A program made the translations under genes and the position numbers. Positions 6,477 to 22,207 of a stretch of DNA of 64,000 bases are shown here, one piece after another. Origin of the DNA: Flavobacteriaceae bacterium (GTDB lineage: Bacteria; Bacteroidota; Bacteroidia; Flavobacteriales; Flavobacteriaceae); the NCBI GenBank assembly GCA_947456815.1, contig CANGTL010000004.1:22958-86957 (forward strand). Reading direction: 5' to 3'. How positions within the stretch are numbered: position 1 is the first letter of the stretch; every line of letters starts with the position of its first letter. Below the pieces are notes generated by a model. The model had not been told where the DNA came from. It did no database searches and saw only the letters and a list, made by a program, of their open reading frames with translations.

Positions 6477-7082
6477 ATGCAATACGACCCACAAGAATTA
6501 GAACAAAAAGCCATTTATAAATTATTATCCGGAATTGTAATTCCACGACCAATTGGTTGGGTTTCTAGTATCAGCGAAGAAGGACTTGTTAACTTGGCGC
6601 CATTTTCGTTTTTTAATGCCGTTGGCGACGACCCGCCCCATGTGATGTTTTCCGTTGGACGAAATATCAACTCAAATCAAGACACTGTTCAGAATGTACT
6701 GACAACAAAGCAATTTGTGGTCAATATGGTGACTGAAGAATTAGTTGAACAAATGAATATGACGGCACAAGCAATTCCATCACACGAAAGCGAATTTGAA
6801 TTTGCCAATCTTACCCCAATCGCATCGCATAAAGTGAAACCGCCAAGAGTAAAAGAAAGCCCGATTAACATGGAGTGCGAGTTGGTACATCATTACACTT
6901 TGGAAAATAGTAAATTTGGAGGTTCAACAATTTTAGTTGGTAGAATCGTTTTGTTTCATATTGATGAGCAAATGCTACTTCCTGATTTCAAAATCAATCA
7001 AGATAACTATCAACCTATATCCAGATTGGCTGGATCTAATTATGCTAAGATTGGGGAAATATTCTCAGTAAAAAGAAATTAA
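6477..7082 (+). CDS. Flavin reductase-like FMN-binding protein (DIM6/NTAB family)
   Basis: IPRPIGWVSS, NLAPFSFFN, PPRVKESPINMEC and ISRLAG motifs. Confidence 0.9.
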   Translation: MQYDPQELEQKAIYKLLSGIVIPRPIGWVSSISEEGLVNLAPFSFFNAVGDDPPHVMFSVGRNINSNQDTVQNVLTTKQFVVNMVTEELVEQMNMTAQAIPSHESEFEFANLTPIASHKVKPPRVKESPINMECELVHHYTLENSKFGGSTILVGRIVLFHIDEQMLLPDFKINQDNYQPISRLAGSNYAKIGEIFSVKRN

Positions 7083-7083
7083 T

Positions 7084-9384
7084 ATGAAAATATCAGTAAT
7101 CGGTGGAGGTCCAGGCGGTTTGTACTTTTCAATTCTATTGAAAAAAGCCATTCCAACTTGCGAAATAGATATCTATGAACGCAACAAGGCTGATGACAGT
7201 TTTGGCTTTGGTGTTGTGTTTTCAGATGAAACTTTAAGTGAATTTCTTTCTCGTGACCCCAAATCCTATGAATTAATTCGCAGCAAATTTGCCTATTGGG
7301 ATGATTTGGATGTCGCACGAGATGGTGAAGTCGTTCGTATTTCCGGCAATGGATTTTGCGGTTGTTCTCGTAAAACTTTATTGCAATTGTTGCAACAGCG
7401 ATGTGTTGAAGAAGGCGTCAATCTTCATTTCGAAACCAATATTGAAGACATCAAACAATTCAAAGACTCCGACTACATTATTGCTTGTGATGGCATAAAC
7501 AGCCCAATTCGAGATCAAAATGCTGCAGCCTTCGGCACGAAAGTGTCGCTTCAAAAAAACAAATTTGTTTGGCTGGGTTCTACTAGACCGTTGGATGCCT
7601 TTACGTATTTTTTCAAGAATACGATTCACGGCGCTTTCGTCGCCCACACCTACCAATATGAAGAAGGTATGAGTACATGGATTTTCGAATGTTCTGAAAA
7701 CACATGGACCAACGCGGATTTTGAAACGACAGATGAGAAAGACACAATCAAGAAATTATCCGAGCTTTTCGCTGAAGAATTAGATGGTCATCCATTGATT
7801 TCAAATAAATCTCATTGGCGTCAATTTCCACACGTTACCAACGAAAAATGGTATAAAGACAATATTGTGCTTTTAGGTGATGCCAAAGCCACCGCCCACT
7901 ACTCTATCGGTTCAGGAACTAAACTAGCGATGGAATGTGCCATTGGCTTAGCCGATTCGATCATCGAATTTAAAACCAACAAAGCGAAAGTTTTTGCTCA
8001 ATATGAAAAATTGCGCAGAAATCGTGTTGAAATGATACAGCATGCGGCAAACGTCTCTCTCGATTGGTTCGAAAATATGGATAGACATATTCATCATGAT
8101 TTTATGCAGTTTGCCTTTGGTGTTATGACGCGATCTAAAAAAGTTACGTATGAAAATTTAGCCCTGCGAGATGCTTCGTTTACGGACAAAGTATTAACAG
8201 AATTCAATTGCAGTATAGGAAATTTTAAAGTCAAAACGCCCGCTGCCTTTACGCCATTTGCACTAAGAGATATGCGTTTGATTAATCGAATTGTGATGTC
8301 GCCAATGGGTCAATATGCCGCTGAAAACGGATTGGTTTCCAATTGGCATTTGGTGCATTATGGTGCACGAGCAACGGGTGGCGTTGGATTGATTTTGACG
8401 GAAATGACCGCGGTGTCAAATACAGGCCGAATCACTTTAGGTTGCGCCGGAATTTGGTCTGAAGAACAAGCATTTAAATGGAAAAAAGTTGTGAATTATG
8501 TTCATAAATATAGCAAGTCTAAGATCGGAATTCAATTAGGGCATTCAGGAAGAAAAGGTTCAATTAATGTGCCTTCCGTGGGTAAAGATATTCCGCTTGC
8601 GAAACGTGGTTGGGATTTGATGTCTGCTTCACCAATTCCATTCAATGCAGCGATGGCAACGCCAAAAGCAATGACACTTACCGACATGGATCAAGTGATT
8701 TCCGAGTTTGTAAATGCAACGATTAATGCCGATGAACTGGGTTTTGATATGATTGAATTACAAGCGCATCATGGATTCTTACTAGCCTCTTTCCTGTCTC
8801 CATTGACAAATATTAGAACTGATGAATTTGGGGGCAGTATTCAAAACAGAATGAAGTTTCCATTGGAGGTTTTTAAAGCAATGCGTGAAGTTTTTACTGA
8901 AACCAAGCCAATGTCGGTGCGTATCTCAGCATCGGATTGGGTCGAAGACGGTATTTCAGAAGATGATGTGATTTACATCTGCAATGCTTTTAAAGAAGCT
9001 GGTGCGGATATCATCAATGTATCGACCGGAAATACAGTCGAAAATCAACAGCCACAAGTAGGTCGAATGTGGCAAACGCCATTCTCTGATTTGGTTCGAA
9101 ATACCTTACATATTCCGACAATAACAACAGGTTACATTCAAAATATAGATCAAATTAATACTATAATATTGAATGGTAGAGCGGACTTAGTAGCATTAGG
9201 TCGACCGTTATTACTGGATCCAAGTTTCGTGCGTCATGCCGAAGCTTATGAACAGTTTCAACCGGCAGATATTCCAAATCAATATGTGGCTGGTGTGTCG
9301 CATCTTTTTCCATATGAGGCGTCCGAAAGAAAAGCTGTTGAAGGCATGAAGAAAGCATTAAAACCAGAAAGTCATAAATCCTAA
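7084..9384 (+). CDS. Bifunctional aryl-CoA monooxygenase/OYE-like reductase (2-aminobenzoyl-CoA monooxygenase AbmA / salicylyl-CoA 5-hydroxylase SdgC family)
   Basis: N-terminal FAD monooxygenase (IGGGPGG, ACDGINS, LLGDAKATAHYSIGSGTKLAME) fused to an old-yellow-enzyme TIM barrel (NRIVMSPMGQY, SPLTNIRTDEFGGS, ADLVALGRPLL). Confidence 0.9.
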   Translation: MKISVIGGGPGGLYFSILLKKAIPTCEIDIYERNKADDSFGFGVVFSDETLSEFLSRDPKSYELIRSKFAYWDDLDVARDGEVVRISGNGFCGCSRKTLLQLLQQRCVEEGVNLHFETNIEDIKQFKDSDYIIACDGINSPIRDQNAAAFGTKVSLQKNKFVWLGSTRPLDAFTYFFKNTIHGAFVAHTYQYEEGMSTWIFECSENTWTNADFETTDEKDTIKKLSELFAEELDGHPLISNKSHWRQFPHVTNEKWYKDNIVLLGDAKATAHYSIGSGTKLAMECAIGLADSIIEFKTNKAKVFAQYEKLRRNRVEMIQHAANVSLDWFENMDRHIHHDFMQFAFGVMTRSKKVTYENLALRDASFTDKVLTEFNCSIGNFKVKTPAAFTPFALRDMRLINRIVMSPMGQYAAENGLVSNWHLVHYGARATGGVGLILTEMTAVSNTGRITLGCAGIWSEEQAFKWKKVVNYVHKYSKSKIGIQLGHSGRKGSINVPSVGKDIPLAKRGWDLMSASPIPFNAAMATPKAMTLTDMDQVISEFVNATINADELGFDMIELQAHHGFLLASFLSPLTNIRTDEFGGSIQNRMKFPLEVFKAMREVFTETKPMSVRISASDWVEDGISEDDVIYICNAFKEAGADIINVSTGNTVENQQPQVGRMWQTPFSDLVRNTLHIPTITTGYIQNIDQINTIILNGRADLVALGRPLLLDPSFVRHAEAYEQFQPADIPNQYVAGVSHLFPYEASERKAVEGMKKALKPESHKS

Positions 9385-10284
9385 ATGAGAACTTTTATTT
9401 TAATATTGATGATGATGTCAATGTCAGTCCAAGCGCAAAAGGAAGACATTATTAATAGTGGCAATTCAAAATTATATTATCGAATTTTCGGCGAAGGAAA
9501 GCCGATGTTAATTATCAATGGTGGTCCTGGTATGAACAGCGATGGATTTAGTAGTATCGCCCAAACATTAACGCAATACGATTACCAAACAATCACCTAT
9601 GATCAGCGAGGAACTGGAAAATCTACATTGGAACTATTAAATTCAAAAACCATTACGATGGATTTGATGGTGGAAGACATGGAAATTCTCAGAACGCATC
9701 TCAACATAGAAAAATGGACAATCCTCGGACATTCTTTTGGTGGCATCATGGCTGCTTATTACGCAACTAAACATCCTGAACGCGTTGAGAAATTGATTCT
9801 GTCCAGTTCAGGAGGCATTAACATGGAGTTTACTTCGTACGTAGCAAAAAGACAACAAGCCAATCTTACAGACATGCAAAGAGATAGTTTGGCTTATTAT
9901 CAAAAGAAACAAAATCACGGTGATACTTCGATTGAAACCATGAAAGGACGTACTAAATTTTTGGCATTTGCTTATGTTTATGATCAATCGAAAGCGCCAA
10001 TTATAGCAGAAAGATTGCAGCAATTTAATGCGGAAATTAATAGATTGGTAATTCAAGATTTATTTAGAATCAAGTACGATTGTTCGAATAAGTTTCCAAA
10101 TTTTGACAAGCCAGTTTTGGTATTGCAAGGTAAAAATGATATTATTACTGTTGATACGGCTCAGAAAACAGCCAAAGCATTTCCCAATTCAAAACTCGTG
10201 TTAATGGATCGTTGTGCACATTACGGTTGGCTTGATGCACCGGAAGTCTATTTTGCTAGCATTCAAAGTTTTTTAAATAGTTAA
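9385..10284 (+). CDS. Exported alpha/beta hydrolase (prolyl aminopeptidase-like)
   Basis: GGPG oxyanion loop, DQRGTGKS, GHSFGG nucleophile and CAHYGW His. Sec signal MRTFILILMMMSMSVQA followed by Gln. Confidence 0.85.
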   Translation: MRTFILILMMMSMSVQAQKEDIINSGNSKLYYRIFGEGKPMLIINGGPGMNSDGFSSIAQTLTQYDYQTITYDQRGTGKSTLELLNSKTITMDLMVEDMEILRTHLNIEKWTILGHSFGGIMAAYYATKHPERVEKLILSSSGGINMEFTSYVAKRQQANLTDMQRDSLAYYQKKQNHGDTSIETMKGRTKFLAFAYVYDQSKAPIIAERLQQFNAEINRLVIQDLFRIKYDCSNKFPNFDKPVLVLQGKNDIITVDTAQKTAKAFPNSKLVLMDRCAHYGWLDAPEVYFASIQSFLNS

Positions 10285-10287
10285 GTC

Positions 10288-11874
10288 ATGAAGCATTACG
10301 ACGACAATTTCGCCCATGATTATTTGCCTGCTTTGGAATTACAGCCTAGTTATATTTTTAATTTACCAGAATTCCAACAGCCAGAAATGTTGAATTGTGT
10401 CGAAAGATTACTCGACCATCACATCCATTCTGGACACGGAAATAGCATTTGTCTGCGCACGTTTGATGCCACTTGGACGTACCAAGAATTGTATGAGAAA
10501 GCCAATCAAATCGCACACGTTTTAATAGAAGATCTCAATCTAAAATCGGGTAATCGTGTCCTAATTCGTTCTGCCAACAACCCAATGATGGTGGCATGTT
10601 GGTTTGCTATTCTTAAAGCTGGAGGTATCGTAGTGGCAACGATGCCGTTGTTGCGATCGAAAGAACTGACAACCATCATCGAATGTGCCGAAATATCGCA
10701 TGCTTTCTGTGATATTGAATTGGCTGATGAAATGAATTTGGTTCAATCTGATTTTTTGCGAGAAGTGTGTTACTATCGCAATGCTACCTTAGAAAAATTA
10801 ATGCAGTCCAAAACGAAAACATTCACCAACTACCATTCAAAATCAGATAGCATCGCCTTAATTGGCTTTACTTCAGGCACCACAGGATTGCCGAAAATGA
10901 CGTCGCATTTCCATGCAGACATTCTCAATATTTGCGAAGCGTTTCCACCTTATTCATTGCAACCGTCGTCAAAAGATATTTTTACAGGAAGTCCACCGCT
11001 TGGTTTTACTTTTGGTTTGGGAGGTTTGGTTTTGTTTCCGATGTATTTTGGAGCATCAACTTTTTTAATAGAAAAACCAAGTCCAGATTTGTTGTTACAG
11101 GCAATTCAAGATCACAAGATCACGATTTGCTTTACAGCGCCCACCGCTTGGCGCGTGATTACGACGAAAGTGCATGAGTTTGATATTTCTAGTCTACGAA
11201 AATGTGTCTCCGCAGGTGAAACTTTGCCTTTAAAAGTTTGGCAGGATTGGTACGACGCTACTGGACTCAAAATCATTGATGGGATTGGAGCGACAGAAAT
11301 GTTGCATATATTTATTTCATCTAACGAATCGAATATGAAACCTGGCGCTACTGGAGTTGCGATTAAAGGTTACGAAGCGAAGATTATTGATGAAAACGGC
11401 ATTGAAGTTCCTAGAAACGAACCAGGACGATTGGCAGTACGCGGCATTACAGGCTGTAAATATTTAAATCGCCCTGACAAACAACAAGAATATGTTCAAA
11501 ATGGATGGAACATCACTGGCGATATATTCCGCAAAGACGATGACGGATACTTTTGGTTTGTCGCTCGAGGAGACGATATGATTATTTCTTCGGGTTATAA
11601 TATTGGCGCGGTTGAAGTAGAAAGTGTACTTTTAACCCACGATGAAATTCATGAATGTGCTGTTGTAGGCCTGCCCGATTCTGAACGCGGAATGGTGGTT
11701 TGTGCCCATATCGTTCTAAAAGAAAAAAGTAAAGCATCCGAAGATTTAACAAAAGCTATTCAGTTGTGGTTTAAAGAAGTAGCTGCTCCATATAAATATC
11801 CAAGAAAGATTCATTTTGTGGAAGAATTGCCTAAAACAGAAACAGGTAAGATTCAACGATTTAAGTTAAAATAA
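10288..11874 (+). CDS. Aryl-CoA ligase (2-aminobenzoate-CoA ligase AbmG-like)
   Basis: FTSGTTGLPK, SPPLGFTFGLGG (aminobenzoate-ligase type), DGIGATEMLHIF and LPKTETGKIQRF. Confidence 0.88.
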   Translation: MKHYDDNFAHDYLPALELQPSYIFNLPEFQQPEMLNCVERLLDHHIHSGHGNSICLRTFDATWTYQELYEKANQIAHVLIEDLNLKSGNRVLIRSANNPMMVACWFAILKAGGIVVATMPLLRSKELTTIIECAEISHAFCDIELADEMNLVQSDFLREVCYYRNATLEKLMQSKTKTFTNYHSKSDSIALIGFTSGTTGLPKMTSHFHADILNICEAFPPYSLQPSSKDIFTGSPPLGFTFGLGGLVLFPMYFGASTFLIEKPSPDLLLQAIQDHKITICFTAPTAWRVITTKVHEFDISSLRKCVSAGETLPLKVWQDWYDATGLKIIDGIGATEMLHIFISSNESNMKPGATGVAIKGYEAKIIDENGIEVPRNEPGRLAVRGITGCKYLNRPDKQQEYVQNGWNITGDIFRKDDDGYFWFVARGDDMIISSGYNIGAVEVESVLLTHDEIHECAVVGLPDSERGMVVCAHIVLKEKSKASEDLTKAIQLWFKEVAAPYKYPRKIHFVEELPKTETGKIQRFKLK

Positions 11875-11890
11875 TATATACGCGTAATAT

Positions 11891-12316
11891 ATGAACCAAC
11901 CCTTTATCAAAACTGAAAAAATCCGTTTCAAACATGTCGATTATGCTGGCATCGTTTTCTATCCACGTTTTTTAGAAATGCTCAATGACTTGGTCGAAGA
12001 CTGGTTTGAAGAAGCACTAGATCGTCCTTTCTCGGAAATTCACGAAACCAATGGGATTCCAACTGTTGATTTGAAAGTGCAGTTCAAAAATGCCGCACGA
12101 TTGGGACAAGTACTCCAAAAGAAATTATGGGTTAAAAATATTGGCTTCGCTTCGCTCCTATGCGGATTCGAATTTATCGACGAAACCGGTAAAACAACAC
12201 TTTCAGGTGAAGTAACTTTGGTGAATGTGGCAATCAGCGAAAATCGCAACGAGATCAAAGCAGAACCCTTTTCCGAAATAATGAAAATGAAAATTTCCAA
12301 ATACATCATCGAGTAG
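11891..12316 (+). CDS. Hotdog-fold acyl-CoA thioesterase (4-hydroxybenzoyl-CoA thioesterase family)
   Basis: IRFKHVDYAGIVFYPRFLEM N-terminal motif. Confidence 0.9.
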   Translation: MNQPFIKTEKIRFKHVDYAGIVFYPRFLEMLNDLVEDWFEEALDRPFSEIHETNGIPTVDLKVQFKNAARLGQVLQKKLWVKNIGFASLLCGFEFIDETGKTTLSGEVTLVNVAISENRNEIKAEPFSEIMKMKISKYIIE

Positions 12317-12324
12317 TATTTTTG

Positions 12325-12355
12325 AACTTACAACTTACAACTTACAACTTACAAC
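12325..12355 (+). repeat. Tandem heptamer (AACTTAC)x4 plus AAC
   Basis: Read directly, between the thioesterase stop and the nitrilase ATG. Confidence 0.95.
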
Positions 12356-12378
12356 ATAGAACTGACAACACACAACCA

Positions 12379-13359
12379 ATGACCTTCCCAAAATTTAAAG
12401 CCGCCGCCGTACAAACAGCACCCGTATTTCTCAATGTACCAAAAACGGTCGATAAAGCGATTTCGTTCATCCAAGAAGCGAGTCGAAATGGTGCGCAACT
12501 CATCGCCTTTCCTGAAGTATTTATCGCAGGTTATCCCTATTGGAATTGGATTATGACACCCGTGCAAGGCAGTAAATGGTACGAACAATTATACAAAAAC
12601 TCCGTCGCTGTTGAAGATGCTGATATGCAACGGTTGTTCAAAACAGCAAAAGACCATAACATTCATGTCGTCATTGGTATTAATGAACGCGGCTCAAGTT
12701 ATGGTGAAATCTACAACACAAATCTCATTATTGATAACCAAGGAAATCTCATAGGGAAGCACAGAAAACTCGTGCCAACGTGGGCAGAAAAACTCACATG
12801 GACCTCCGGTGATGGTTCTTCTTTGAAAGTGTATAACACCGAAATAGGTCCAATAGGCACTTTAGCTTGTGGTGAAAATACGAATACTTTAGCACGATTT
12901 ACATTGTTGACGCAAGGTGAGTTAATTCACATTGCCAATTATATTTCACTACCAGTTGCGCCGCCCGATTACGACATGGCAGAAGCCATAAAGATCCGTG
13001 CTTGTGCCCATTCCTTTGAAGGGAAATTATTCACCATTGTTTCCTGTTCAACGATTTCACAAGAAATAAAAGACGCCTTGCGCAGTGATGTTCCGAATGT
13101 TGATGAAATTCTAACCCGAAAAAATTCTGCTTTTTCTGGATTTATCGGACCCAATGGTGCCGTAATCGGAACGCCATTAATTGATGATGAAGGGATTATC
13201 TACGCCGACATCGATCTCGAAAAATGCATTCAACCCAAACAAATGCACGATATTCTCGGACATTACAACCGTTTTGATATTTTTGATTTACGAGTGAATA
13301 CTGCTCCAACAAGAAATATTACTTTTATAGACAATCACGAGGATTTTAATAAGAAATAA
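12379..13359 (+). CDS. Nitrilase (carbon-nitrogen hydrolase, branch-1-like)
   Basis: Triad motifs FPEVFI, HRKLVPTWAEK and LACGENT. Start moved from the TTG at 12322, which translates the heptamer repeat, to ATG 12379. Confidence 0.9.
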   Translation: MTFPKFKAAAVQTAPVFLNVPKTVDKAISFIQEASRNGAQLIAFPEVFIAGYPYWNWIMTPVQGSKWYEQLYKNSVAVEDADMQRLFKTAKDHNIHVVIGINERGSSYGEIYNTNLIIDNQGNLIGKHRKLVPTWAEKLTWTSGDGSSLKVYNTEIGPIGTLACGENTNTLARFTLLTQGELIHIANYISLPVAPPDYDMAEAIKIRACAHSFEGKLFTIVSCSTISQEIKDALRSDVPNVDEILTRKNSAFSGFIGPNGAVIGTPLIDDEGIIYADIDLEKCIQPKQMHDILGHYNRFDIFDLRVNTAPTRNITFIDNHEDFNKK

Positions 13360-13360
13360 A

Positions 13361-14470
13361 ATGAACGAAAAACATTCTGACGACGTCATCGGTCGCGCCC
13401 GAGTAAAAGACACTCCTGAACTCGAAGCCTATTATAAAGAACTCGAAGCACTCGGCGCCGGTGCCTTGTGGACCGTTGCCAATGATATCGAACCATGGGA
13501 ACCCAGAAGTTCTTCTGTTCCTATGTTGTGGAAATACGAAGATTTACGAAGTTTAGTCTTAAAATCATCTGAACTCGTTACTCCAGAACAAGCCGGACGA
13601 AGAGTCGTCTATTTGGTCAATGACAAACGCAAAGACGTTTCTGCCGCTGTCGGTTGGTTGTATACTGGAATTCAAGTTACACGTCCAGGAGAAAGCACTT
13701 CTGCCCACCGCCACAAAGCATCAGCCTTGCGATTTATTATGGAAGGCGACAAAGGCTACACTGTTGTAGATGGGAATAAAATCATGCTTGAAGTCAATGA
13801 TTTTGTGATTACGCCGAATTCCACTTGGCACGAACACGGTGTAGAAGCCGACGGGCAAACTTGTATTTGGCAAGATGGCCTTGATATTCCGCTCGTCAAC
13901 GCATTAGAAGCCAATGATTATGCGGTGTATGATGGCAAACAACCTCTAGATTTTCCGGTTAATTATTCACCAATCACTTACGGTTGCGCTGGTCTAATTC
14001 CAGCAGATGTGACTTGGGATAAACCATATTCTCCTTTATTTAAATATTCTTGGAAAGTAGTTTATCCCGCTTTACTTGAAATGCTAAAAGTAAAAGAACT
14101 CCATCCGATTGATGGTATTCTAATGCAATATTCCAATCCATTAACAGGTGGCCACGTGATGCAAACCATGGGCGCCTCGATGCAATTGTTACCTGCCGGT
14201 TTCAGAGGGAAAGCGCACAAACATACCGGTTCATTTGTCTATCAATGTGCTAAAGGCAGCGGCTACTCGATTATCAACGGGCAACGATTTGATTGGAAGG
14301 AACGGGATATTTTCTGTGTTCCGTCTTGGGCGTGGCACGAACATCACAACGCATCTGACACCGAAGACGCATGCTTGTTCTCGTTCAACGATTTACCCAC
14401 GATTGAGAAACTCGGATTGTATCAAGAGAAAATATTTGAAGATAACAATGGTTTTCAAAAGTTGAATTAG
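13361..14470 (+). CDS. Bicupin ring-cleaving dioxygenase, gentisate/salicylate 1,2-dioxygenase family
   Basis: AGRRVVYL; SAHRHKASALRF and TWHEH in the first cupin; AHKHTGS and AWHEH in the second cupin; WQDGLDIPLV. Confidence 0.9.
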   Translation: MNEKHSDDVIGRARVKDTPELEAYYKELEALGAGALWTVANDIEPWEPRSSSVPMLWKYEDLRSLVLKSSELVTPEQAGRRVVYLVNDKRKDVSAAVGWLYTGIQVTRPGESTSAHRHKASALRFIMEGDKGYTVVDGNKIMLEVNDFVITPNSTWHEHGVEADGQTCIWQDGLDIPLVNALEANDYAVYDGKQPLDFPVNYSPITYGCAGLIPADVTWDKPYSPLFKYSWKVVYPALLEMLKVKELHPIDGILMQYSNPLTGGHVMQTMGASMQLLPAGFRGKAHKHTGSFVYQCAKGSGYSIINGQRFDWKERDIFCVPSWAWHEHHNASDTEDACLFSFNDLPTIEKLGLYQEKIFEDNNGFQKLN

Positions 14471-14546
14471 GAGCTTTTTCCCGCTCTCCGCTATATCTTT
14501 TGTTTCATTGCATTACACAAAAGGATACCGCTGCGATCGGGGCTAG
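14467..14546 (+). repeat. REP-like hairpin element, copy A (no inner module)
   Basis: TTAGGAGC..CCCGCT..CGCTATATCTTTTG...CAAAAGGATACCGCTGCGATCGGGGCTAG, similar to the copies at 26865, 36473 and 55002. Confidence 0.85.
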
Positions 14547-14586
14547 CCCACCCCACCCTTCGGGCACCCCTCCAAAGGAGGGGAAA
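14547..14586 (+). repeat. GC-rich REP-like palindrome
   Basis: CCCACCCCACCCTTCGGGCACCCCTCCAAAGGAGGGGAA, containing a perfect CCCCTCC-AAA-GGAGGGG hairpin. Single copy in the window. Confidence 0.6.
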
Positions 14587-14612
14587 CCATCAACAACGAT
14601 TAAATAAAATAC

Positions 14613-14620
14613 TAACTTTG
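14613..14620 (+). promoter_or_regulatory. Bacteroidetes -7 element (TAACTTTG), possible internal promoter for FAH-maiA
   Basis: Exact TAnnTTTG about 40 nt before the FAH ATG, overlapping an octamer array. No clear -33 TTG. Confidence 0.35.
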
Positions 14621-14640
14621 CGCCTCCGCGACTTTGCGAG
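14616..14640 (+). repeat. Degenerate octamer array CTT(T/C)GCG(C/A)-like x3
   Basis: ctttgcgc ctccgcga ctttgcga, with a related array at 25965-25988. Confidence 0.7.
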
Positions 14641-14661
14641 CAAAAAAAACAGAAACACACA

Positions 14662-15570
14662 ATGAAACTACTCACCTACCAAACCAAAGATACCGAACCT
14701 CGCTTGGGATTCATTCATAACAACCAAGTCATCGATATGGAAGATTTCGGAGAAATATCCAATTTTCCGTTGCCTACTTCAATGTTAGAACTCATTGACA
14801 TGGGATTTGAAATCATCGATGAACTCAACAGCATGATTGCTGATACAGAACCAGCGTTCTTTAAAGAAATCGCTTACGAAATGGACGAAATTATCTTTCT
14901 CGCTCCAATTCCAAAACCGCGAAAAAACATCATCGGCATTGGATTGAATTATACCGAACACGTGGCAGAAAGTGCGCGTACTTTAGACACTTCCAACGAA
15001 TTGCCACAAAGTCCAATTATATTTTCAAAACCACCAACAACCGTTACGGCCACCAACACCAACATCTTGTTGAATCCCAAATTGACACAACAACTCGATT
15101 GGGAAGTTGAACTGGCAGTCGTGATTGGTAAAAAAGGAAAATACGTGCCTAAAGCCGATGCGATGGATTATGTTTTCGGCTATACCGTAATCAATGATAT
15201 TTCTGCGCGAGATTGCCGCCGATCTGGTCAGTGGATTGTTTCGAAAGGACAAGATACCTTTGCACCGATGGGACCAGTTTTGGTAACAAAAGACGAAATC
15301 TCGAATCCACATAATTTGAATTTATCGTTGACAGTCAATGGTGTCGAGAAGCAAAACTCCAATACCAAATTTATGCTGTTTAACATCAGCGATTTAATTG
15401 AAGATTTGAGCACCGTTTTTACTATCGAAGCCGGAGATATTATTGCAACCGGAACACCATCTGGCGTTGGTGCTGGTCGAAATCCACAAGAATGGTTGTG
15501 GGATGGCGATGTCGTCGAAGCTACTGTTGAAGGCATCGGTACGATTGTCAATACGGTAAAGTCGATGTAG
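14662..15570 (+). CDS. Fumarylacetoacetate hydrolase family protein
   Basis: IGIGLNYTEH, IIFSKP, LDWEVELAVVIGK, NDISARD, SKGQDTFAPMGP and DIIATGTPSGVG. Confidence 0.95.
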   Translation: MKLLTYQTKDTEPRLGFIHNNQVIDMEDFGEISNFPLPTSMLELIDMGFEIIDELNSMIADTEPAFFKEIAYEMDEIIFLAPIPKPRKNIIGIGLNYTEHVAESARTLDTSNELPQSPIIFSKPPTTVTATNTNILLNPKLTQQLDWEVELAVVIGKKGKYVPKADAMDYVFGYTVINDISARDCRRSGQWIVSKGQDTFAPMGPVLVTKDEISNPHNLNLSLTVNGVEKQNSNTKFMLFNISDLIEDLSTVFTIEAGDIIATGTPSGVGAGRNPQEWLWDGDVVEATVEGIGTIVNTVKSM

Positions 15571-15572
15571 CA

Positions 15573-15700
15573 CTAGACCCGCGTTAGGGATTGTAGTGAA
15601 AATCCTTTTTTGTTTAGTGAAAAGCCCTTCGACTGCGCTCAGGGTGACAAACAAAAAAGATTGCAACGAAAAGCCCGCCCGCTTTTTCTGCGGGAACGCC
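15573..15700 (-). repeat. REP-like element, copy B, with nested GTCACCCTGAGCGCAGTCGAAGGG module
   Basis: The reverse complement shares the core CGTT.CAATCTTTTTTGTTT...AAACAAAAAAGGATTT.CACT with copy C. Inner module at 15625-15648, terminal CCCGC/GCGGG hairpin. Confidence 0.85.
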
Positions 15701-15764
15701 CATATAAAAATCCAAAGCCGCAGGCGTGTCTAAAGCGTAGCGTGTCTAAAAATCTAAAAATCTA

Positions 15765-16514
15765 ATGAAAAAATACAGAATTGGACAAATAGTTCCTTCA
15801 TCCAACGTAACGATGGAAACCGAAATTCCAGCAATTTTCCGCTCTAGAGAAACGATATTGCCTGAACGATTTACGTTTCACAGCAGTAGAATGAGGATGA
15901 AAAAAGTTACCAAAGAAGAGCTTGAAGCGATGGATGCGATGAGTTTGAAATGTGCGCAAGAACTTTCTGATGCGCATGTTGATGTCATGGGTTATGCGTG
16001 TTTGGTTGCGATTATGAGTATGGGACGCGGTTATCATTGCGTATCGGAAGTCAATTTGCATCAAGAGACCATTGCCAACGACTTCCCTACTCCGATTGTG
16101 ACTTCCGCTGGCGCCTTGATTAACGGATTGAAAGTCTTAGGAGCGAAGAAAGTCGCGATTATTACACCGTATATGCGTCCGTTGACCGATATGGTTGTGG
16201 ATTATATCGAGCATCAAGGATTTGAAGTAGTCGATTCGATTGCGTTAGAGATTCCGGATAATTTAGAAGTGGCAGCGCAGGATCCGATGAATTTATTGGA
16301 AATCTACAAGCGCTTGGATTTGACTGGTGTGGATGTTTTGGTTGCATCGGCTTGTGTTCAGATGCCTTCGTTGGAAGCCATTGATTTGATTCAAGCAGCC
16401 ATTGGCATTCCAGTGACTTCTGCGGCAGTGTGCACCACTTATGAAATGATGAAGAAGTTGGGCATTGAGGCTAAATCTGCTATAGGTGGGGAACTGCTGA
16501 ATGGAAAGTATTAA
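15765..16514 (+). CDS. maiA: Maleate cis-trans isomerase (Asp/Glu racemase superfamily)
   Basis: YRIGQIVPSSNVTMETEIP and RFTFHSSRMRM, with the catalytic Cys pair in GYACLVAIM and SACVQMPSL. Closely resembles the MaiA/NicE family. Confidence 0.92.
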   Translation: MKKYRIGQIVPSSNVTMETEIPAIFRSRETILPERFTFHSSRMRMKKVTKEELEAMDAMSLKCAQELSDAHVDVMGYACLVAIMSMGRGYHCVSEVNLHQETIANDFPTPIVTSAGALINGLKVLGAKKVAIITPYMRPLTDMVVDYIEHQGFEVVDSIALEIPDNLEVAAQDPMNLLEIYKRLDLTGVDVLVASACVQMPSLEAIDLIQAAIGIPVTSAAVCTTYEMMKKLGIEAKSAIGGELLNGKY

Positions 16515-17137: not shown

Positions 17138-20100
17138 TTATCGTTTCAATGAAAAGTGGGCTTTAAATTCTTTCGAAGCACCTTTTTCTTCATATTCGAC
17201 TAAGAACCAATAATCATCTGCTGGCAATGGTCGTCCGTTGTAAGTACCATCCCATCCTTTCCCACGTGGACTAAGTTGTTTTAGTAATTTACCATAACGG
17301 TCAAAAATTAATATTCGAGATTTCAATTGGTCGGCTAAACCAAAGATGTTCCATGTGTCATTGTAAGTATCATCGTTTGGAGTAAAGAATTTAGGGTAAT
17401 TGATTACCATTATTTCTTCTGAAATTGGACTGGAACATCCATTTGCATCAATCACTTTTATAATATGGGTTCCTGCACTTACATTTTGAAAAATATTGCT
17501 TTGTTGTAGCGGACCAAAGTCCAATTGATACAAGTAATTACCTGCATCAGTTGCTAGAACTGTGATTACTTGGTTATCTTCAAAGTAGTTGGTAACGATA
17601 CCGTTTATAGCAACTAGTGTATATTGATTAATTGTGACATTAAGTGTTTGAGATAACGCACATTCTCCAATTTGAGGCGTAAAGACATAACTTGCGCTTG
17701 CGGTATTATCTATTGTATTTGGTAGCCATGTTCCTGTTATTCCATTGGGAGAAATAGCCGGTAAAGGTGGTGCTATCGCCCCATTACAAAAAGCTAGATC
17801 AGGAAAACCTGGTGTTATAGGCTCCGTGACTTCAATAAAAGCAGTACTTGTAGTAGCACATTCGTTTGCATTTGGCGTAAACTGATATGGAAAAATTCCA
17901 CTAACTGTATTATCAACAATACTTGGACTCCATGTTCCCGGAACGCCATTGATAGAAGTCAAAGGTAAAATAGGTGCAACACTTCCTTTGCAAAATGGTG
18001 CAACAGTTGCAAAATTGGGAACCGTTCTAGGTATAATAGTCACATTCAAAGTTTGATTTAATGCACATTGTCCTGGATTTGGTGTAAAAACATATGGTCT
18101 GGAAATAGTAATATCTATTACCGGAGGATCCCATGTGCCTTCGATTCCATTCGGTGACGTTGTTGATAATGTTGGTGCTGGAAAACCATCACAAAAAGGC
18201 GCAATAGGTGCAAAATTAGGAGTCAAAACAGGAACTACTGTAATTGATAATGTTGATGGTAAGACTGAAACACATTGCCCTAATGTTGGTGTAAAGGTGT
18301 AAATTGTCGTTCCTAAAGCGGATGTGCTTACTGGTGATGGATTCCAAGTTCCAGTTATGGCTGGAATATTATCTGAAGATGTTGGTAAGATGGGCGGAGT
18401 ATCTCCTTGGCATAAAGGAGCAAACAATCCGAACAATGGAGTTATTCGTTGATTAACCGTAATAGTAATTTGTGCTGTGGTGGCGCAGAGTCCAGCAGTC
18501 GGCGTAAACGTGTAAGTAGCAGTTGCTGTGTTATCAACGGGTAAATTCCAAGTACCTGTTATTCCATTATTAGAAATTAAAGGCAAAGCTGCTAACGGAC
18601 TTCCGGAACATATAGGTGCTATTGGAGTAAATGTTGGAACAATATTGGTATTTACTGTTACAGGTCTAATCACACTAGTATTGGCGCAACCTCCTACTCC
18701 CACTAGTTCATATTTTATATCGGCATTACCGGCACTTAAACCCGTTATCACTCCGGTACTTGCATTTACGGTTGCAACGCTTGGATTAGAAGAAGACCAA
18801 GTTCCTCCGCTTACAGTAGAAACAAACGTTGAAGTTCCTCCAATGCAAATAGATTGAGTACCACTTAATATACCAGGATTTACAGGTGCTGATACAGTTA
18901 TTAATCTAGTTACAGGAAGGCTTGGAGGACAACCTCCAGTGCCGTTTACCACATAAGACATTGTAGATGTTCCGACTGCGACTCCAATAACAACTCCTGC
19001 ATTTGAAATTGTAGCAACTGCTGGATTAGAGCTTGTCCAAGTTCCACCTGGAATTGTTGAAGTTAAGTTAGTTGAAAAACCTATACATATAGCTTGCGTA
19101 CCACTTAGAGAACCTGCACTTGGAATGGCAGAGACGGTAACTGAACGAGAACTAGTTGCATTAGGACAGCCTCCAGTTCCTGCTACTGTGTAGATTATGT
19201 TTGATGAACCAGCACTTATTGCGGTAACAAGTCCTGTAGAAGAGTTAACTGTAGCTACAGCAATATTTGAGGAACTCCATGAGCCTCCTATTATAGTAGA
19301 ACTCATAGAAGTTGTATCACCTACGCAAATGGCTTGTGTACCACTTAGAGTCCCAGCGACTGGAGGATTAGTAACAGTTAGCGGTCTTGAAAATACAACA
19401 GCAGGACATCCACCAGCTGCTGGAAAAGTATAATCAATAGATACTACGCCGCTACTTACACCAGTTACTTGACCAGTTGAAGAGTTTATGGTAGCAATTG
19501 CAGGATTTGCTGAACTCCAAGTTCCACCAGCCGTTGAAGAAGTAAAAGTAGTTGTTGAGCCCACGCAAACATTTGGTCCAGCCAATACAGTTGTTGGTGG
19601 ATTCGTAATCGTGATGGACTTGGTTACGCTTATAGCACAAGGAAACAAAGTCAAATTTGGCGTAAAAACATAATTGCCGTTTGAAGTATTACTTACAGTT
19701 GCTGGAGACCAAGTGCCCGTTACACCATTAGAGGAAGTAGTTGGTAAAATCGGTGCCACTGTTCCTGAGCAAACTGTTGAAGGTATTGTAAATGTTGGTG
19801 TTGTCGCTGTTGCACAATTGCTGCATGTGTTGGAAATTGGAAAAGTCAAGCATGGGTAACCAGGTGCAGAAGTAAGTGTGAGTGTACAACTTTGTCCAGG
19901 TAATACACCAAAGACTTCCAAGGATGATAAAATTGTATTGCCGCTAACGAGCGGGCCGCCATTTATGGAGTAAGTATAATTATACTGATCCGGTCTTCCT
20001 GGTGGAACAATATTATCCCAGTCAAAGAATATCGAAGTAACAGGATTAGTTGTCACTTGAGTTCCATCGCATCTCAAATTGAGTGACCCTGTTACAGAAT

Positions 20101-22207
20101 TAACAACTACATTTATTGCTTTCCGTGATCCCTCGCATGTGCCTATGGTTTGACTGACATAATATGTAGTCGTACCGTTGGTAGCAGTTGATGGTATTGG
20201 TGCTGAAGCAGATGCGGTTCCGCCGGTTGCATTGGTTCCATACCAATTTAAAGTTCCTCCAGGTAAGGCAGTTGCTACCAAAGGAGTAGCCACGCTTCCT
20301 TGACAAAAATAAACGGGCGAGGTAGCAGTCGGAGCTGCAACTGAACCAGCAGGCGTCAATGTAACTATAACAGGTTGAACCACTGAGCAAGTTCCCAATG
20401 TTCCTCTGATGTAATAAGTTCCACTAGTTGTAATTGCGGCAGCACTAGTCAAGCTGATCGGACTGGCAGTTGCTGCTGCATCATTCCAATATGTAAGAGT
20501 CAACCCAGCTGTACTGCCAGCAGTGATGGCGGCGGTTGTGATATTCACGGTTCCTGGCAAACAAACTGCTGGTGGATTTGTTATTACTAAGTTTACAGTA
20601 TTTGTCACTGTTACAGTAACAGATTTAGGTGGAAGTATACATGTGTTTATTCTAGAAAGAACAATATCATCAAGTGCAAAATCATTTCCATTTGAGGCAG
20701 TATTTCTGTTGTAAAAACAGATCTCTGCTGTTGTGCTTACGCCTGAATTCCATGCATAAATTACATCGTCCCAAACGCAAACAGTGTTGGGCGCTAAAGA
20801 AGTTCCCAATGATATCCCATTAATCTTAACTTCAATATTTGATAGTCCTGCTGGGTTTGACAACGACTGTACCCAGTACGTTAAATTGTAGTTTTGACCT
20901 GGATTTACCGGAATCGTCTGACACCAAACTTTGTCATTTCCTCCATTTGCGGTTGAGCCATCAACAACCAGCATTCTCCCTAGTCCATTGGTATGATCTA
21001 CGCAAGGAGAAAAAAAAGTTTCCCAAGCATTTGGATTACTAACTACACCGTAAGCTTTTTGAAGGTTACCCGTATTGCTTGCGTAATAAGTATGATCACT
21101 CGTAAATCCAACATTACCCAAGAAAAAATCACCATTATAAACTAAATTGTTTGGGGTTACTGTAGTTGAATTAACTGTATATGTTGTAGTAACAGAGGGA
21201 CTGACTGTAGGATTTGATCCGGTAGGAATTGGTTGTGTATTATCAACAGACCAAGTGTAAGTACCTCCACCAGAAGCAGTAAGTGTAGTGGAAGCACCTG
21301 CGCATATAGTGGTACTTGTGGCTGTTAGAGTCAAACCATTTGCATTAGGTATAATAATATTGCTTTGTCCTATACTTGCGCCGGCACTGTCAGTCACATC
21401 GAGGGTGTAGTTTCCCGGAGCTAATCCCGTAAAAAAACCAGTTGCGCTATTGTTAGCAGGAATTGGACCTGATAATGTATAGTTTGTATAAGTGCCACTT
21501 CCACCAATTCCATAACCGAAAATGGTTCCGTCATTAGCATTGATGCAAGTGAGATTTGTAATTGAGTAGGTTAAAGATAATGGCGCAGGTGCTGCCGTAA
21601 AAGAAATGTCATCTAAAGCGAAATCATTTCCTGTGGATGATGTTTGTCTGTCATAAAGCCAAATCTGCGCAAATCCAGATGTAGCGACCCATGTATATTT
21701 TACTTGATTCCATCCGCAAAGTGTTGTTGAACAGATATTACTCCCAGCTGTAGGATTAACATCGACATTATTGATTTTAACCTGAATATTCGCAGAGTTT
21801 CCAGCGGTATTTGTAGATGAAATAGATTGTATCCAATAGCTAAATGTATAGGTAACACCTGCTGTTACCGGAATACCGCCGCCGCCGCCCGATGACGTTA
21901 ATGCTTCCCATATTTTATCATTATTTGGTCCAGAAGTGGCACCGTCAACCACCATCATTTTTCCCGTAGTAGAAGTGTGGTCTCGACAAACATTACTAAA
22001 AACAGCGTTTATAGGTCCTGCATTATTTACAATCGCGTAACTTCTTGGCGTACTGTTGGAAGATACCAAAAAATAATTGGTTTGAAAACCAGAGCCCGCT
22101 CCTCCACCTTCGAAATCACCATTAGTGATTAAATTCTGAGATGATAAACTTAAAGCGGATAGTAATATGAAATAAAAATATAGTGGTTTTATTGCTTTTA
22201 GAATCAT
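17138..22207 (-). CDS. Large T9SS type B (gliding-motility CTD) surface protein with carbohydrate-binding-like and Ig-like repeats
   Basis: Signal peptide followed by QNLITNGDF. Two NGDF...NDFALDDI jelly-roll-like domains, four BIG2-like WSSSN..VAT repeats and several GITGTW..FTP repeats. C-terminal YPKFFTPN..IFDRYGK..WDGTYNG..DDYWF..FSLKR. Confidence 0.93.
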   Translation of the reverse strand: MILKAIKPLYFYFILLSALSLSSQNLITNGDFEGGGAGSGFQTNYFLVSSNSTPRSYAIVNNAGPINAVFSNVCRDHTSTTGKMMVVDGATSGPNNDKIWEALTSSGGGGGIPVTAGVTYTFSYWIQSISSTNTAGNSANIQVKINNVDVNPTAGSNICSTTLCGWNQVKYTWVATSGFAQIWLYDRQTSSTGNDFALDDISFTAAPAPLSLTYSITNLTCINANDGTIFGYGIGGSGTYTNYTLSGPIPANNSATGFFTGLAPGNYTLDVTDSAGASIGQSNIIIPNANGLTLTATSTTICAGASTTLTASGGGTYTWSVDNTQPIPTGSNPTVSPSVTTTYTVNSTTVTPNNLVYNGDFFLGNVGFTSDHTYYASNTGNLQKAYGVVSNPNAWETFFSPCVDHTNGLGRMLVVDGSTANGGNDKVWCQTIPVNPGQNYNLTYWVQSLSNPAGLSNIEVKINGISLGTSLAPNTVCVWDDVIYAWNSGVSTTAEICFYNRNTASNGNDFALDDIVLSRINTCILPPKSVTVTVTNTVNLVITNPPAVCLPGTVNITTAAITAGSTAGLTLTYWNDAAATASPISLTSAAAITTSGTYYIRGTLGTCSVVQPVIVTLTPAGSVAAPTATSPVYFCQGSVATPLVATALPGGTLNWYGTNATGGTASASAPIPSTATNGTTTYYVSQTIGTCEGSRKAINVVVNSVTGSLNLRCDGTQVTTNPVTSIFFDWDNIVPPGRPDQYNYTYSINGGPLVSGNTILSSLEVFGVLPGQSCTLTLTSAPGYPCLTFPISNTCSNCATATTPTFTIPSTVCSGTVAPILPTTSSNGVTGTWSPATVSNTSNGNYVFTPNLTLFPCAISVTKSITITNPPTTVLAGPNVCVGSTTTFTSSTAGGTWSSANPAIATINSSTGQVTGVSSGVVSIDYTFPAAGGCPAVVFSRPLTVTNPPVAGTLSGTQAICVGDTTSMSSTIIGGSWSSSNIAVATVNSSTGLVTAISAGSSNIIYTVAGTGGCPNATSSRSVTVSAIPSAGSLSGTQAICIGFSTNLTSTIPGGTWTSSNPAVATISNAGVVIGVAVGTSTMSYVVNGTGGCPPSLPVTRLITVSAPVNPGILSGTQSICIGGTSTFVSTVSGGTWSSSNPSVATVNASTGVITGLSAGNADIKYELVGVGGCANTSVIRPVTVNTNIVPTFTPIAPICSGSPLAALPLISNNGITGTWNLPVDNTATATYTFTPTAGLCATTAQITITVNQRITPLFGLFAPLCQGDTPPILPTSSDNIPAITGTWNPSPVSTSALGTTIYTFTPTLGQCVSVLPSTLSITVVPVLTPNFAPIAPFCDGFPAPTLSTTSPNGIEGTWDPPVIDITISRPYVFTPNPGQCALNQTLNVTIIPRTVPNFATVAPFCKGSVAPILPLTSINGVPGTWSPSIVDNTVSGIFPYQFTPNANECATTSTAFIEVTEPITPGFPDLAFCNGAIAPPLPAISPNGITGTWLPNTIDNTASASYVFTPQIGECALSQTLNVTINQYTLVAINGIVTNYFEDNQVITVLATDAGNYLYQLDFGPLQQSNIFQNVSAGTHIIKVIDANGCSSPISEEIMVINYPKFFTPNDDTYNDTWNIFGLADQLKSRILIFDRYGKLLKQLSPRGKGWDGTYNGRPLPADDYWFLVEYEEKGASKEFKAHFSLKR

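Follow-up and report, generated by a model that had tools for sequence, protein, structure and literature searches.

What does a bifunctional flavoenzyme release when catalytic residues in one of its two halves have been exchanged? This question is raised by a gene for a fused flavin adenine dinucleotide (FAD) monooxygenase/Old Yellow Enzyme (OYE) protein, located in a 64,000-nucleotide stretch of Flavobacteriaceae DNA (contig CANGTL010000004.1, positions 22,958 to 86,957 of the forward strand; hereafter, the window). The related enzyme ACMR hydroxylates 2-aminobenzoyl-coenzyme A (CoA) at C5 and then hydrogenates the non-aromatic intermediate, as described in PMC3534580 and PMC4539516. Under limiting reduced nicotinamide adenine dinucleotide (NADH), ACMR releases aromatic 5-hydroxyanthraniloyl-CoA, as PMC3534580 relates from Langkau et al. 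1990; this backs what an earlier note on this DNA had said of AbmA, namely that its product re-aromatises when reduction is incomplete. Judged from the sequence and its homologues, the window gene probably (roughly 70%) encodes an aroyl-CoA 5-hydroxylase derived from the ACMR/AbmA type, in which hydrogenation is disabled and the aromatic 5-hydroxy-aroyl-CoA is released. The gene and the sites on which this assignment turns are the following.

7084 to 9384, + strand: putative fused aroyl-CoA 5-hydroxylase (P0001), 766 amino acids, FAD monooxygenase half plus OYE half
7084 to 8193, + strand: FAD monooxygenase half, residues 1-370, VioD-like (match to VioD 8gqr/3c4a, E 1e-46)
8245 to 9294, + strand: OYE half of the YqjM/TsOYE type, residues 388-737 (match to 3hf3, E 3e-77), remodelled and under purifying selection
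8299 to 8316, + strand: SPMGQY loop, residues 406-411, with Gly409 in the place of Cys in YqjM-type OYEs and of Ala, Cys or Asp in canonical fused enzymes
8749 to 8784, + strand: active-site segment MIELQAHHGFLL, residues 556-567 (in-frame translation, alignment to 3hf3)
8761 to 8763, + strand: Gln560 (CAA), replacing the first substrate-binding His; the sole substitution identical in all three lineages described below
8767 to 8769, + strand: His562, Ala in 99% of canonical enzymes and Gly in the corresponding enzymes of Streptomyces and Proteobacteria
8770 to 8772, + strand: His563 (CAT), second His of the pair, retained (alignment to 3hf3)
8776 to 8778, + strand: Phe565 (TTC), replacing the proton-donor Tyr; a lineage-specific exchange
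8827 to 8829, + strand: Phe582 within RTDxYGGS, where 93% of canonical enzymes have Tyr
9208 to 9210, + strand: Leu709 within GRPxLxDP, His in 97% of canonical enzymes and Gln in Streptomyces

Profile searches place PF01494 at residues 95-317 and PF00724 at residues 389-720 (E 8e-69) of a single 766-residue open reading frame (ORF), which is the fused ACMR/SdgC architecture of a FAD_binding_3 monooxygenase and a C-terminal Oxidored_FMN domain in about 750-800 residues. Over its full length the protein is homologous to the enzymes of Abm-type clusters (44-53% identity), the comparison with AbmA being made via proxies from the Abm-type clusters of Ralstonia, Ruegeria, Burkholderia and Arthrobacter. 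Residue equivalences were taken from a HMMER alignment to the OYE of Thermus scotoductus (3hf3; v-i-e-l-H-m-a-H-g-Y-l-l). Hereby, Gln560 corresponds to the first substrate-binding His, His563 to the second and Phe565 to the proton-donor Tyr. The earlier note had read IELQAHHGFLL here, with Gln at 8761-8763, His at 8770-8772 and Phe at 8776-8778, and had taken Gln and Phe as replacements of the first His and the Tyr of YqjM-type OYEs; sequence, translation and alignment agree with it. In place of the catalytic set ELHxAHGY (His-x-x-His plus Tyr), the window enzyme has Gln560/His563/Phe565. In canonical enzymes the His and the Tyr are 100% conserved (95-98 canonical fused homologues and five stand-alone OYEs), and most of 150 diverse family representatives read ELHxAHGYLL, whereas the flavobacterial orthologues have Gln in 80/80 and Phe in 78/80 cases. 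The Gln and Phe substitutions are far beyond chance.

The best relatives of the C-terminal half are the thermophilic-like OYEs YqjM and TsOYE (PDB 1z41 and 3hf3; E 3e-77 to 2e-63), with which it shares the PF00724 TIM barrel and the motifs that contact flavin mononucleotide (FMN). Unlike them, it is fused to a monooxygenase and has Gln for the first His, Phe for Tyr and Gly for the Cys after SPM, so that the Cys, the His-His pair and the Tyr are all missing from an otherwise YqjM-type domain. The barrel, previously described as otherwise intact, does keep 85 of the 95 OYE positions that are at least 90% conserved in canonical enzymes, and the flavobacterial OYE half retains the FMN-contact motifs SPM, TEMT, GIQLGHSGRK, VRISASDW and GRADL..GRP..DP; ten of these positions have nevertheless changed (P387A, H560Q, A562H, Y565F, Y582F, R591K, W604F, V682T, H709L and A720Q), and Gly409 adds to them. 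The window stems from a Flavobacterium, the nearest loci being 94-96% identical, and no second copy of the hydroxylase was found in the window's genome.

The state of position 560 goes along with the surrounding genes. Reference genomes, assemblies and annotated plasmids supplied fused-hydroxylase loci together with their flanks (259 tallied, six plasmid loci added later), which we called Gln-type or His-type (canonical) by this residue. Scoring of the module of a dioxygenase and a CN-hydrolase was limited to loci with at least 7 kb of flank, and scoring of beta-oxidation genes to loci flanked by 7 kb or more on each side. The module lies beside 141/150 Gln-type loci and 0/82 His-type loci. 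Conversely, at least two of the genes for enoyl-CoA hydratase (ECH), acyl-CoA dehydrogenase (ACAD), short-chain dehydrogenase/reductase (SDR) and RidA occur near 47/59 His-type but 0/128 Gln-type loci, in line with the expectation that His-types belong to beta-oxidation clusters. The His-type cluster of Ruegeria pomeroyi, for example, contains TDO, SDR, MarR, ECH, ACAD, ligase and RidA genes, those of Ralstonia solanacearum SL3022 and Burkholderia M701 contain genes for a 3-hydroxyacyl-CoA dehydrogenase/SDR, MarR, ECH, ACAD, 2-aminobenzoate-CoA ligase and RidA, and the canonical enzyme P0125, sister of the proteobacterial Gln-types, likewise lies in a beta-oxidation-type cluster. R. solanacearum SL3103 carries both types on one replicon, and the association holds within it.

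The cluster of the window fits the Gln-type pattern. It consists of co-oriented genes from 6477 to 16514, listed here without the hydroxylase and with the ORF that lies just downstream.

6477 to 7082, + strand: flavin reductase, PF01613, with its stop 1 nt before the hydroxylase start (7084)
9385 to 10284, + strand: alpha/beta-hydrolase, between hydroxylase and aryl-CoA ligase
10288 to 11874, + strand: aryl-CoA ligase, benzoate-CoA ligase family (profile matches)
11891 to 12316, + strand: 4HBT-type hotdog thioesterase, presumed acceptor of the aromatic 5-hydroxy-aroyl-CoA
12322 to 13359, + strand: CN-hydrolase (nitrilase superfamily), lower module (profile matches)
13361 to 14470, + strand: bicupin gentisate-type ring-cleaving dioxygenase, below the cut-offs of the gentisate and 5-aminosalicylate dioxygenase models
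14662 to 15570, + strand: hydrolase of the fumarylacetoacetate hydrolase (FAH) family (profile matches)
15765 to 16514, + strand: Asp/Glu-racemase-type protein (Amdase family), maleate-isomerase candidate (profile matches)
17138 to 22207, - strand: 1689-residue ORF just downstream of the cluster

The gene order is kept across the 80 flavobacterial loci as far as contigs reach, with the exception of the alpha/beta-hydrolase, an optional insertion into the operon that is present in only about 14 of them. The coupling to a thioesterase and a gentisate-type 1,2-dioxygenase, as known for SdgC, is found in the window and conserved in this layout, and the window cluster contains no ECH, ACAD, SDR or RidA gene. 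Its bicupin reaches 302 bits against TIGR02272 (cut-off 442), and its CN-hydrolase is 57-66% identical to the counterparts in Streptomyces and proteobacterial modules. Translational coupling links the PF01613 gene to that of the hydroxylase, a monooxygenase of the single-component type. A flavin reductase gene is present at 79/80 flavobacterial loci and also in the module clusters of the proteobacterial genome G729 (39% identity) and of Ralstonia SL3103, where it lies at the cluster end (L262, about 7468, - strand; L289, 16977-17600, - strand); none was found near the Gln-type genes of Streptomyces, Xenorhabdus or Caballeronia. This recurrent gene may bear on the role of the retained OYE half.

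Taken together with what is known of the family, the following course of the reaction can be proposed. The FAD half would hydroxylate a CoA ester para to its ortho substituent, anthraniloyl-CoA being the most likely substrate and salicylyl-CoA a possible one; this 5-hydroxylation of an ortho-substituted benzoyl-CoA is the first half-reaction of ACMR (EC 1.14.13.40, Azoarcus evansii), with which the window shares the fused FAD monooxygenase/OYE layout and the adjacent aryl-CoA ligase. In OYEs the first His binds and polarises the carbonyl of the substrate. In the canonical OYE half, the His-His pair would bind the ring carbonyl and the Tyr would donate a proton during hydrogenation of the non-aromatic intermediate. 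With Gln and Phe in these places, hydride and proton transfer should be disabled or strongly impaired in the window enzyme. The intermediate would then re-aromatise, and the 5-hydroxy-aroyl-CoA would pass constitutively to the hotdog thioesterase and on to the gentisate-type dioxygenase, while the retained OYE half could serve a structural role, electron input or intermediate handling. Unlike ACMR, the window enzyme is thus expected to deliver an aromatic product and not a cyclohexenone-CoA, and its neighbours are a thioesterase, a ring-cleaving dioxygenase, a CN-hydrolase, a FAH hydrolase and a maleate-isomerase-type gene in place of ECH, ACAD, SDR and RidA. An aromatic 5-hydroxy-aroyl-CoA product is reported for SdgC (EC 1.14.13.209, Streptomyces sp. 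WA46) and CehH (Rhizobium sp. X9), which we liken to the window enzyme by their reported reaction and not by sequence. SdgC converts salicylyl-CoA to gentisyl-CoA (PMC13215587, citing Ishiyama 2004), and the gentisyl-CoA formed by SdgC or CehH is hydrolysed and then cleaved by gentisate dioxygenase, according to PMC13215587, PMC11335346 and PMC13594046; a precedent for a gentisyl-CoA thioesterase is given in PMC516016.

The Gln-type enzymes form three lineages, all located next to the same lower module. The first, in Flavobacteriaceae (80 loci), has the motif ELQAHHGF. The second, in Streptomycetaceae (80 loci/species), has ELQ[YF]GHG[HQ] and a SPM loop changed to PPTALY. The third, in Proteobacteria, has ELQA[GA]HG[YF] and a loop changed to SPT..Y; its members are three Xenorhabdus species, G729, Caballeronia sp. 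SBC1, Cupriavidus taiwanensis and the second copy of R. solanacearum SL3103. Each time His560 has become Gln, which takes a one-base change from CAY to CAR. Positions 560 and 562 alone are altered in all three lineages, and Ala562 has become His in the first and Gly in the other two. At the Tyr position, Flavobacterium has Phe, Streptomyces has His or Gln, and Proteobacteria mostly still have Tyr, which is retained in Xenorhabdus, Caballeronia and Cupriavidus and also in 2/80 flavobacteria. Since this position varies by lineage, the His-to-Gln exchange is the diagnostic change for the ring-cleaving pathway type and the loss of Tyr is secondary. The earlier note had asked whether QxxHGF goes with dioxygenase clusters and HxxHGY with beta-oxidation clusters; the Gln does track the dioxygenase module, but the Phe occurs only in the flavobacterial lineage and a small number of Proteobacteria and does not serve as a marker in general. 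QxxHGF was therefore abandoned and Gln kept as the sole marker.

Maximum-likelihood trees place every Gln-type group, with strong support, within canonical sequences: the flavobacterial group with Alphaproteobacteria, the Streptomyces group with sequences among which is the enzyme type of Arthrobacter pAL1, and the proteobacterial group beside P0125 and the Ruegeria/Maricaulis clade. Such a tree requires at least three state changes. Approximately unbiased (AU) tests on the full-length alignment reject joining Flavobacterium and Streptomyces (p-AU 1.4e-4), Proteobacteria and Streptomyces (3.8e-6), Proteobacteria and Flavobacterium (3.4e-6) and all three groups (4e-70). The monooxygenase half, whose tree leaves out the trait's own columns, gives the same answer for the three pairs (6e-5, 9e-4 and 3e-7, respectively). 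The window protein shares only 41-44% identity with the Streptomyces Gln-type, from which its lineage is distinct, while in Burkholderiales the monooxygenase halves of the two types are still 72-76% identical. The genes of the lower module, which are 48-66% identical to those of the window across lineages, are mostly more alike across phyla than the hydroxylases themselves (41-45%), which shows that the module moves horizontally. From these data one may tentatively draw a wider picture, to which we give somewhat less than even odds: the His-to-Gln exchange would be a convergent molecular switch by which a dearomatising monooxygenase/reductase became a plain aromatic 5-hydroxylase on at least three occasions (in Bacteroidota, Actinomycetota and Pseudomonadota), the enzyme being recruited each time upstream of the same mobile module of CN-hydrolase, dioxygenase, FAH hydrolase and maleate isomerase, and the remodelled OYE half gaining a new selected role, for example as an electron relay with the flavin reductase or in catalysed re-aromatisation.

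To compare the two halves of the protein, positions were called conserved when at least 85% identical in canonical enzymes, which gives 92 positions in the monooxygenase half and 114 in the OYE half; a 90% threshold gives 62 and 95. At the 85% threshold, the numbers of changed positions in the monooxygenase and the OYE half are 1 and 12 in Flavobacterium, 5 and 21 in Streptomyces and 2 and 14 in Proteobacteria. The difference persists at the 90% threshold, with 0/62 against 10/95 in Flavobacterium (Fisher p 0.0065) and 2/62 against 15/95 in Streptomyces (Fisher p 0.016). When canonical clades are compared with one another, conservation of the OYE half exceeds that of the monooxygenase half by 11-14 points, an advantage that is gone in comparisons of a Gln-type with its own sister. 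The ratios of nonsynonymous to synonymous substitution rates (dN/dS) within Gln-types are nevertheless low, namely 0.028 for the monooxygenase half and 0.036 for the OYE half in Flavobacterium, and 0.14-0.19 and 0.18-0.22 in Streptomyces. For the canonical enzymes of Stappia the values are 0.10 and 0.13, for those of Salinarimonas 0.15 and 0.115. The ratios of C-terminal to N-terminal dN/dS in Gln-types (1.15-1.26) lie within the canonical range of 0.9-1.33. Each Gln-type origin was thus accompanied by a burst of change in the OYE half, after which constraint resumed. The purifying selection rules out an inactive relic in Flavobacterium and Streptomyces; the case is less clear for Proteobacteria, where the monooxygenase halves of Gln-types are 77-90% and the OYE halves 66-76% identical, the OYE half diverging 1.4-3 times faster. 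Strong purifying selection and the retained FMN-contact motifs indicate that the OYE half still does something. The domain had been proposed to be switched off or repurposed; plain decay is excluded by this selection, and a loss of hydrogenation is what the active site suggests.

How many times the Gln-type OYE half arose is less firmly settled by the OYE half itself. When the motif columns are masked and only the OYE half is used, the AU test does not reject one clade of all Gln-types (p-AU 0.25 for the three groups jointly; 0.39, 0.46 and 0.73 for the pairs), and a constraint that unites Proteobacteria with Flavobacterium even has a slightly better fit than the unconstrained tree. Given also the mobility of the module and the greater likeness of its genes across phyla (55-66%, against 41-45% for the hydroxylases), the Gln-type OYE half could have arisen once, travelled with the lower module and recombined onto local monooxygenase halves, the Gln being inherited and not convergent. 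We consider this unlikely. Every Gln-type OYE half matches its canonical sister at least as well as it matches the OYE halves of the other Gln-types (raw identities of 0.496 against 0.461 and 0.440 in Flavobacterium, and of 0.553 against 0.525 in Proteobacteria), the lineages differ at the Tyr position (F/H/Y) and at position 562 (H/G/G), and a mutual attraction of accelerated lineages is expected in a tree of weak signal. It is similarly improbable, in our estimate, that the OYE half has lost catalysis and any redox role and is kept as a scaffold that the monooxygenase half needs in order to fold, to dimerise or to bind the CoA moiety. Such a scaffold would agree with the substitution of both the catalytic His and Tyr, the burst of change and the lost conservation advantage, the faster divergence in Proteobacteria and the erosion of the SPM and TEMT motifs in Streptomyces. 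It accords poorly with a flavobacterial OYE dN/dS near that of the catalytic half, with the 85/95 conserved positions and all FMN-contact motifs retained there, and with a Gln that was specifically fixed three times and is 100% conserved; the flavin reductase gene recurring beside Gln-type clusters hints at an ongoing flavin-dependent role.

The opposite view, that the OYE half is still an ene-reductase, with a Gln/His pair in place of His/His (compare His/Asn in OYE1), a proton from water or another residue and a reduced ring product, so that the downstream enzymes act on something else, appears very unlikely. The barrel and FMN motifs intact in Flavobacterium, the strong purifying selection and the Tyr retained in several Gln-types would allow for it, and OYE homologues lacking the Tyr can be active. 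Yet none of the 128 scored Gln-type loci has ECH, ACAD or RidA genes to process a reduced ring, a thioesterase and an aromatic-ring-cleaving bicupin dioxygenase are found at all Gln-type loci, and His560 is invariant in all canonical enzymes and stand-alone OYEs sampled; that Ralstonia SL3103 retains both types argues that they are not redundant. Several points nevertheless weigh against the proposed loss of hydrogenation and its link to the pathway. Gln is still able to donate a hydrogen bond, and some OYEs function without the Tyr, morphinone reductase having a Cys there; the window enzyme may hence retain residual ene-reductase activity. Other lineages with decayed OYE halves stay in beta-oxidation clusters. 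The association with the module amounts to three evolutionary transitions and not to 232 independent loci, and the raw Fisher p of 5e-53 over these loci was discarded as a probability, as the loci are related and only the three transitions are independent. Finally, since the OYE half alone is compatible with one origin, convergence of the Gln is not proven. The state of the OYE half follows the pathway under either convergence or a single origin.

As to the substrate, the conserved CN-hydrolase and isatin-type genes in proteobacterial clusters favour anthraniloyl-CoA over salicylyl-CoA and would thereby set the window enzyme apart from the salicylate enzyme SdgC. The module clusters of Xenorhabdus, Caballeronia and Ralstonia SL3103, the proteobacterial ones with readable upstream genes, contain no AMP-forming ligase and instead carry an alpha/beta gene pair resembling indolepyruvate:ferredoxin oxidoreductase, to which the Caballeronia cluster adds a cyclase-family gene of the isatin hydrolase/kynurenine formamidase type (ligase-replacing genes at L263 1065-4881, L287 5615-9291 and 17222-18001, and L289 5607-7907). 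Speculatively, the 2-oxoacid oxidoreductase could form anthraniloyl-CoA directly from isatinate. The lower module resembles the nicotinate/2,5-dihydroxypyridine route (NicX-NicD-NicF-NicE) in its logic of ring cleavage to an amide, hydrolysis, maleate and fumarate, and the maleate-isomerase-type Asp/Glu racemase of the window parallels the NicE step; unlike that route, the window has a bicupin dioxygenase and a nitrilase-superfamily hydrolase in place of NicX and the isochorismatase-type NicF. A maleamate route is among the pathways in PMC3831237. The passage of anthranilate via 5-hydroxyanthranilate to maleate is known from physiological work on Nocardia opaca of 1968, for which the review PMC4539516 names no genes, and our data support a widespread, genetically undescribed route of this kind. 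For anthranilate-grown Arthrobacter sp. Rue61a, CoA esters consistent with a reduced ring are reported in PMC3534580; its plasmid pAL1 (NC_009453) encodes a canonical ELHAAHGY enzyme that is 60% identical to the Streptomyces Gln-type. The large Streptomyces Gln-type lineage carries the same lower module as the window, and a named-homologue search seeded with it gave no WA46 entry among the 120 matches listed.

Current annotation does not follow this division. The window protein aligns to the NCBIfam model NF006101 over residues 1-742 with 980 bits, which falls short of the curated equivalog cut-off (1078 bits). Further NF006101 scores (1365 bits for canonical P0125, 1121 for the Streptomyces Gln-type P0126, 1006 for P0122 and 826 for P0131) fail to split Gln- from His-types, and the model was rejected as a separator. 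Under the name bifunctional salicylyl-CoA 5-hydroxylase/oxidoreductase, it scores canonical Abm-type enzymes highest and calls enzymes of anthranilate/beta-oxidation clusters (L161, L286, L290) salicylyl-CoA hydroxylases, so that the name is likely over-extended. Flavobacterial enzymes bear the JGI label anthraniloyl-CoA monooxygenase, and the Abm-type enzymes of Ralstonia and Ruegeria the NF006101 label salicylyl-CoA 5-hydroxylase. A rule that separates ELQ.[HG]HG from ELH.AHGY would part EC 1.14.13.209-like from EC 1.14.13.40-like activities, which are now lumped together. The enzyme family and both reaction types are already known; what the present analysis adds is the phylogeny with three lineages, the recognition of Gln as the only marker that stays constant, and the dN/dS values. 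In the open-access full-text literature we found no paper that describes this split at the level of residues, the fact that it recurs or the constraint under which the remodelled half stands. The three lineages, together with the one Ralstonia strain that bears both types, constitute a natural replicate series and a case for studying how one of two activities is lost from a bifunctional flavoenzyme.

Some loci deserve separate mention. All 137 R. solanacearum megaplasmid records contain a homologue, the SL3022 copy (L286) lying in an Abm-type cluster near 52 kb; the Gln-type module cluster of SL3103 (L289) lies near 981 kb and is flanked by an IS5 transposase gene, which suggests recent acquisition. 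On plasmid I of Cupriavidus taiwanensis STM 8555 (L288) the module cluster is interrupted by IS66-family elements after the FAH gene, and the annotation contains no CN-hydrolase or racemase gene. At L261 (proteobacterial genome G576, contig 54) there are genes for a CN-hydrolase (65%), a dioxygenase (64%), a FAH hydrolase and a 4HBT thioesterase, with no fused hydroxylase within 10 kb on either side. A third type of neighbourhood occurs on pAL1 of Arthrobacter sp. Rue61a (L291, 4481-11394), where genes for RidA, a small monocupin, a TesB-like thioesterase and a FAH-family hydrolase accompany the canonical hydroxylase and this stretch contains neither ECH nor ACAD. A general rule that OYE decay means a dioxygenase pathway was rejected, as enzymes of the P0129/P0130 type, which have more degenerate OYE halves, lie in ECH/SDR/RidA/ACAD clusters. 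In this probably actinobacterial group (L167, L168 and L169) the OYE half is far more degenerate, with the SPM loop lost and the Tyr changed to Gly, among others, and the gene always adjoins one for a luciferase-like (LLM) oxidoreductase, which might have assumed the reduction. On haloarchaeal plasmids (hits H85 and H87), an annotated monooxygenase likewise lies beside a LLM-class gene in the corresponding place.

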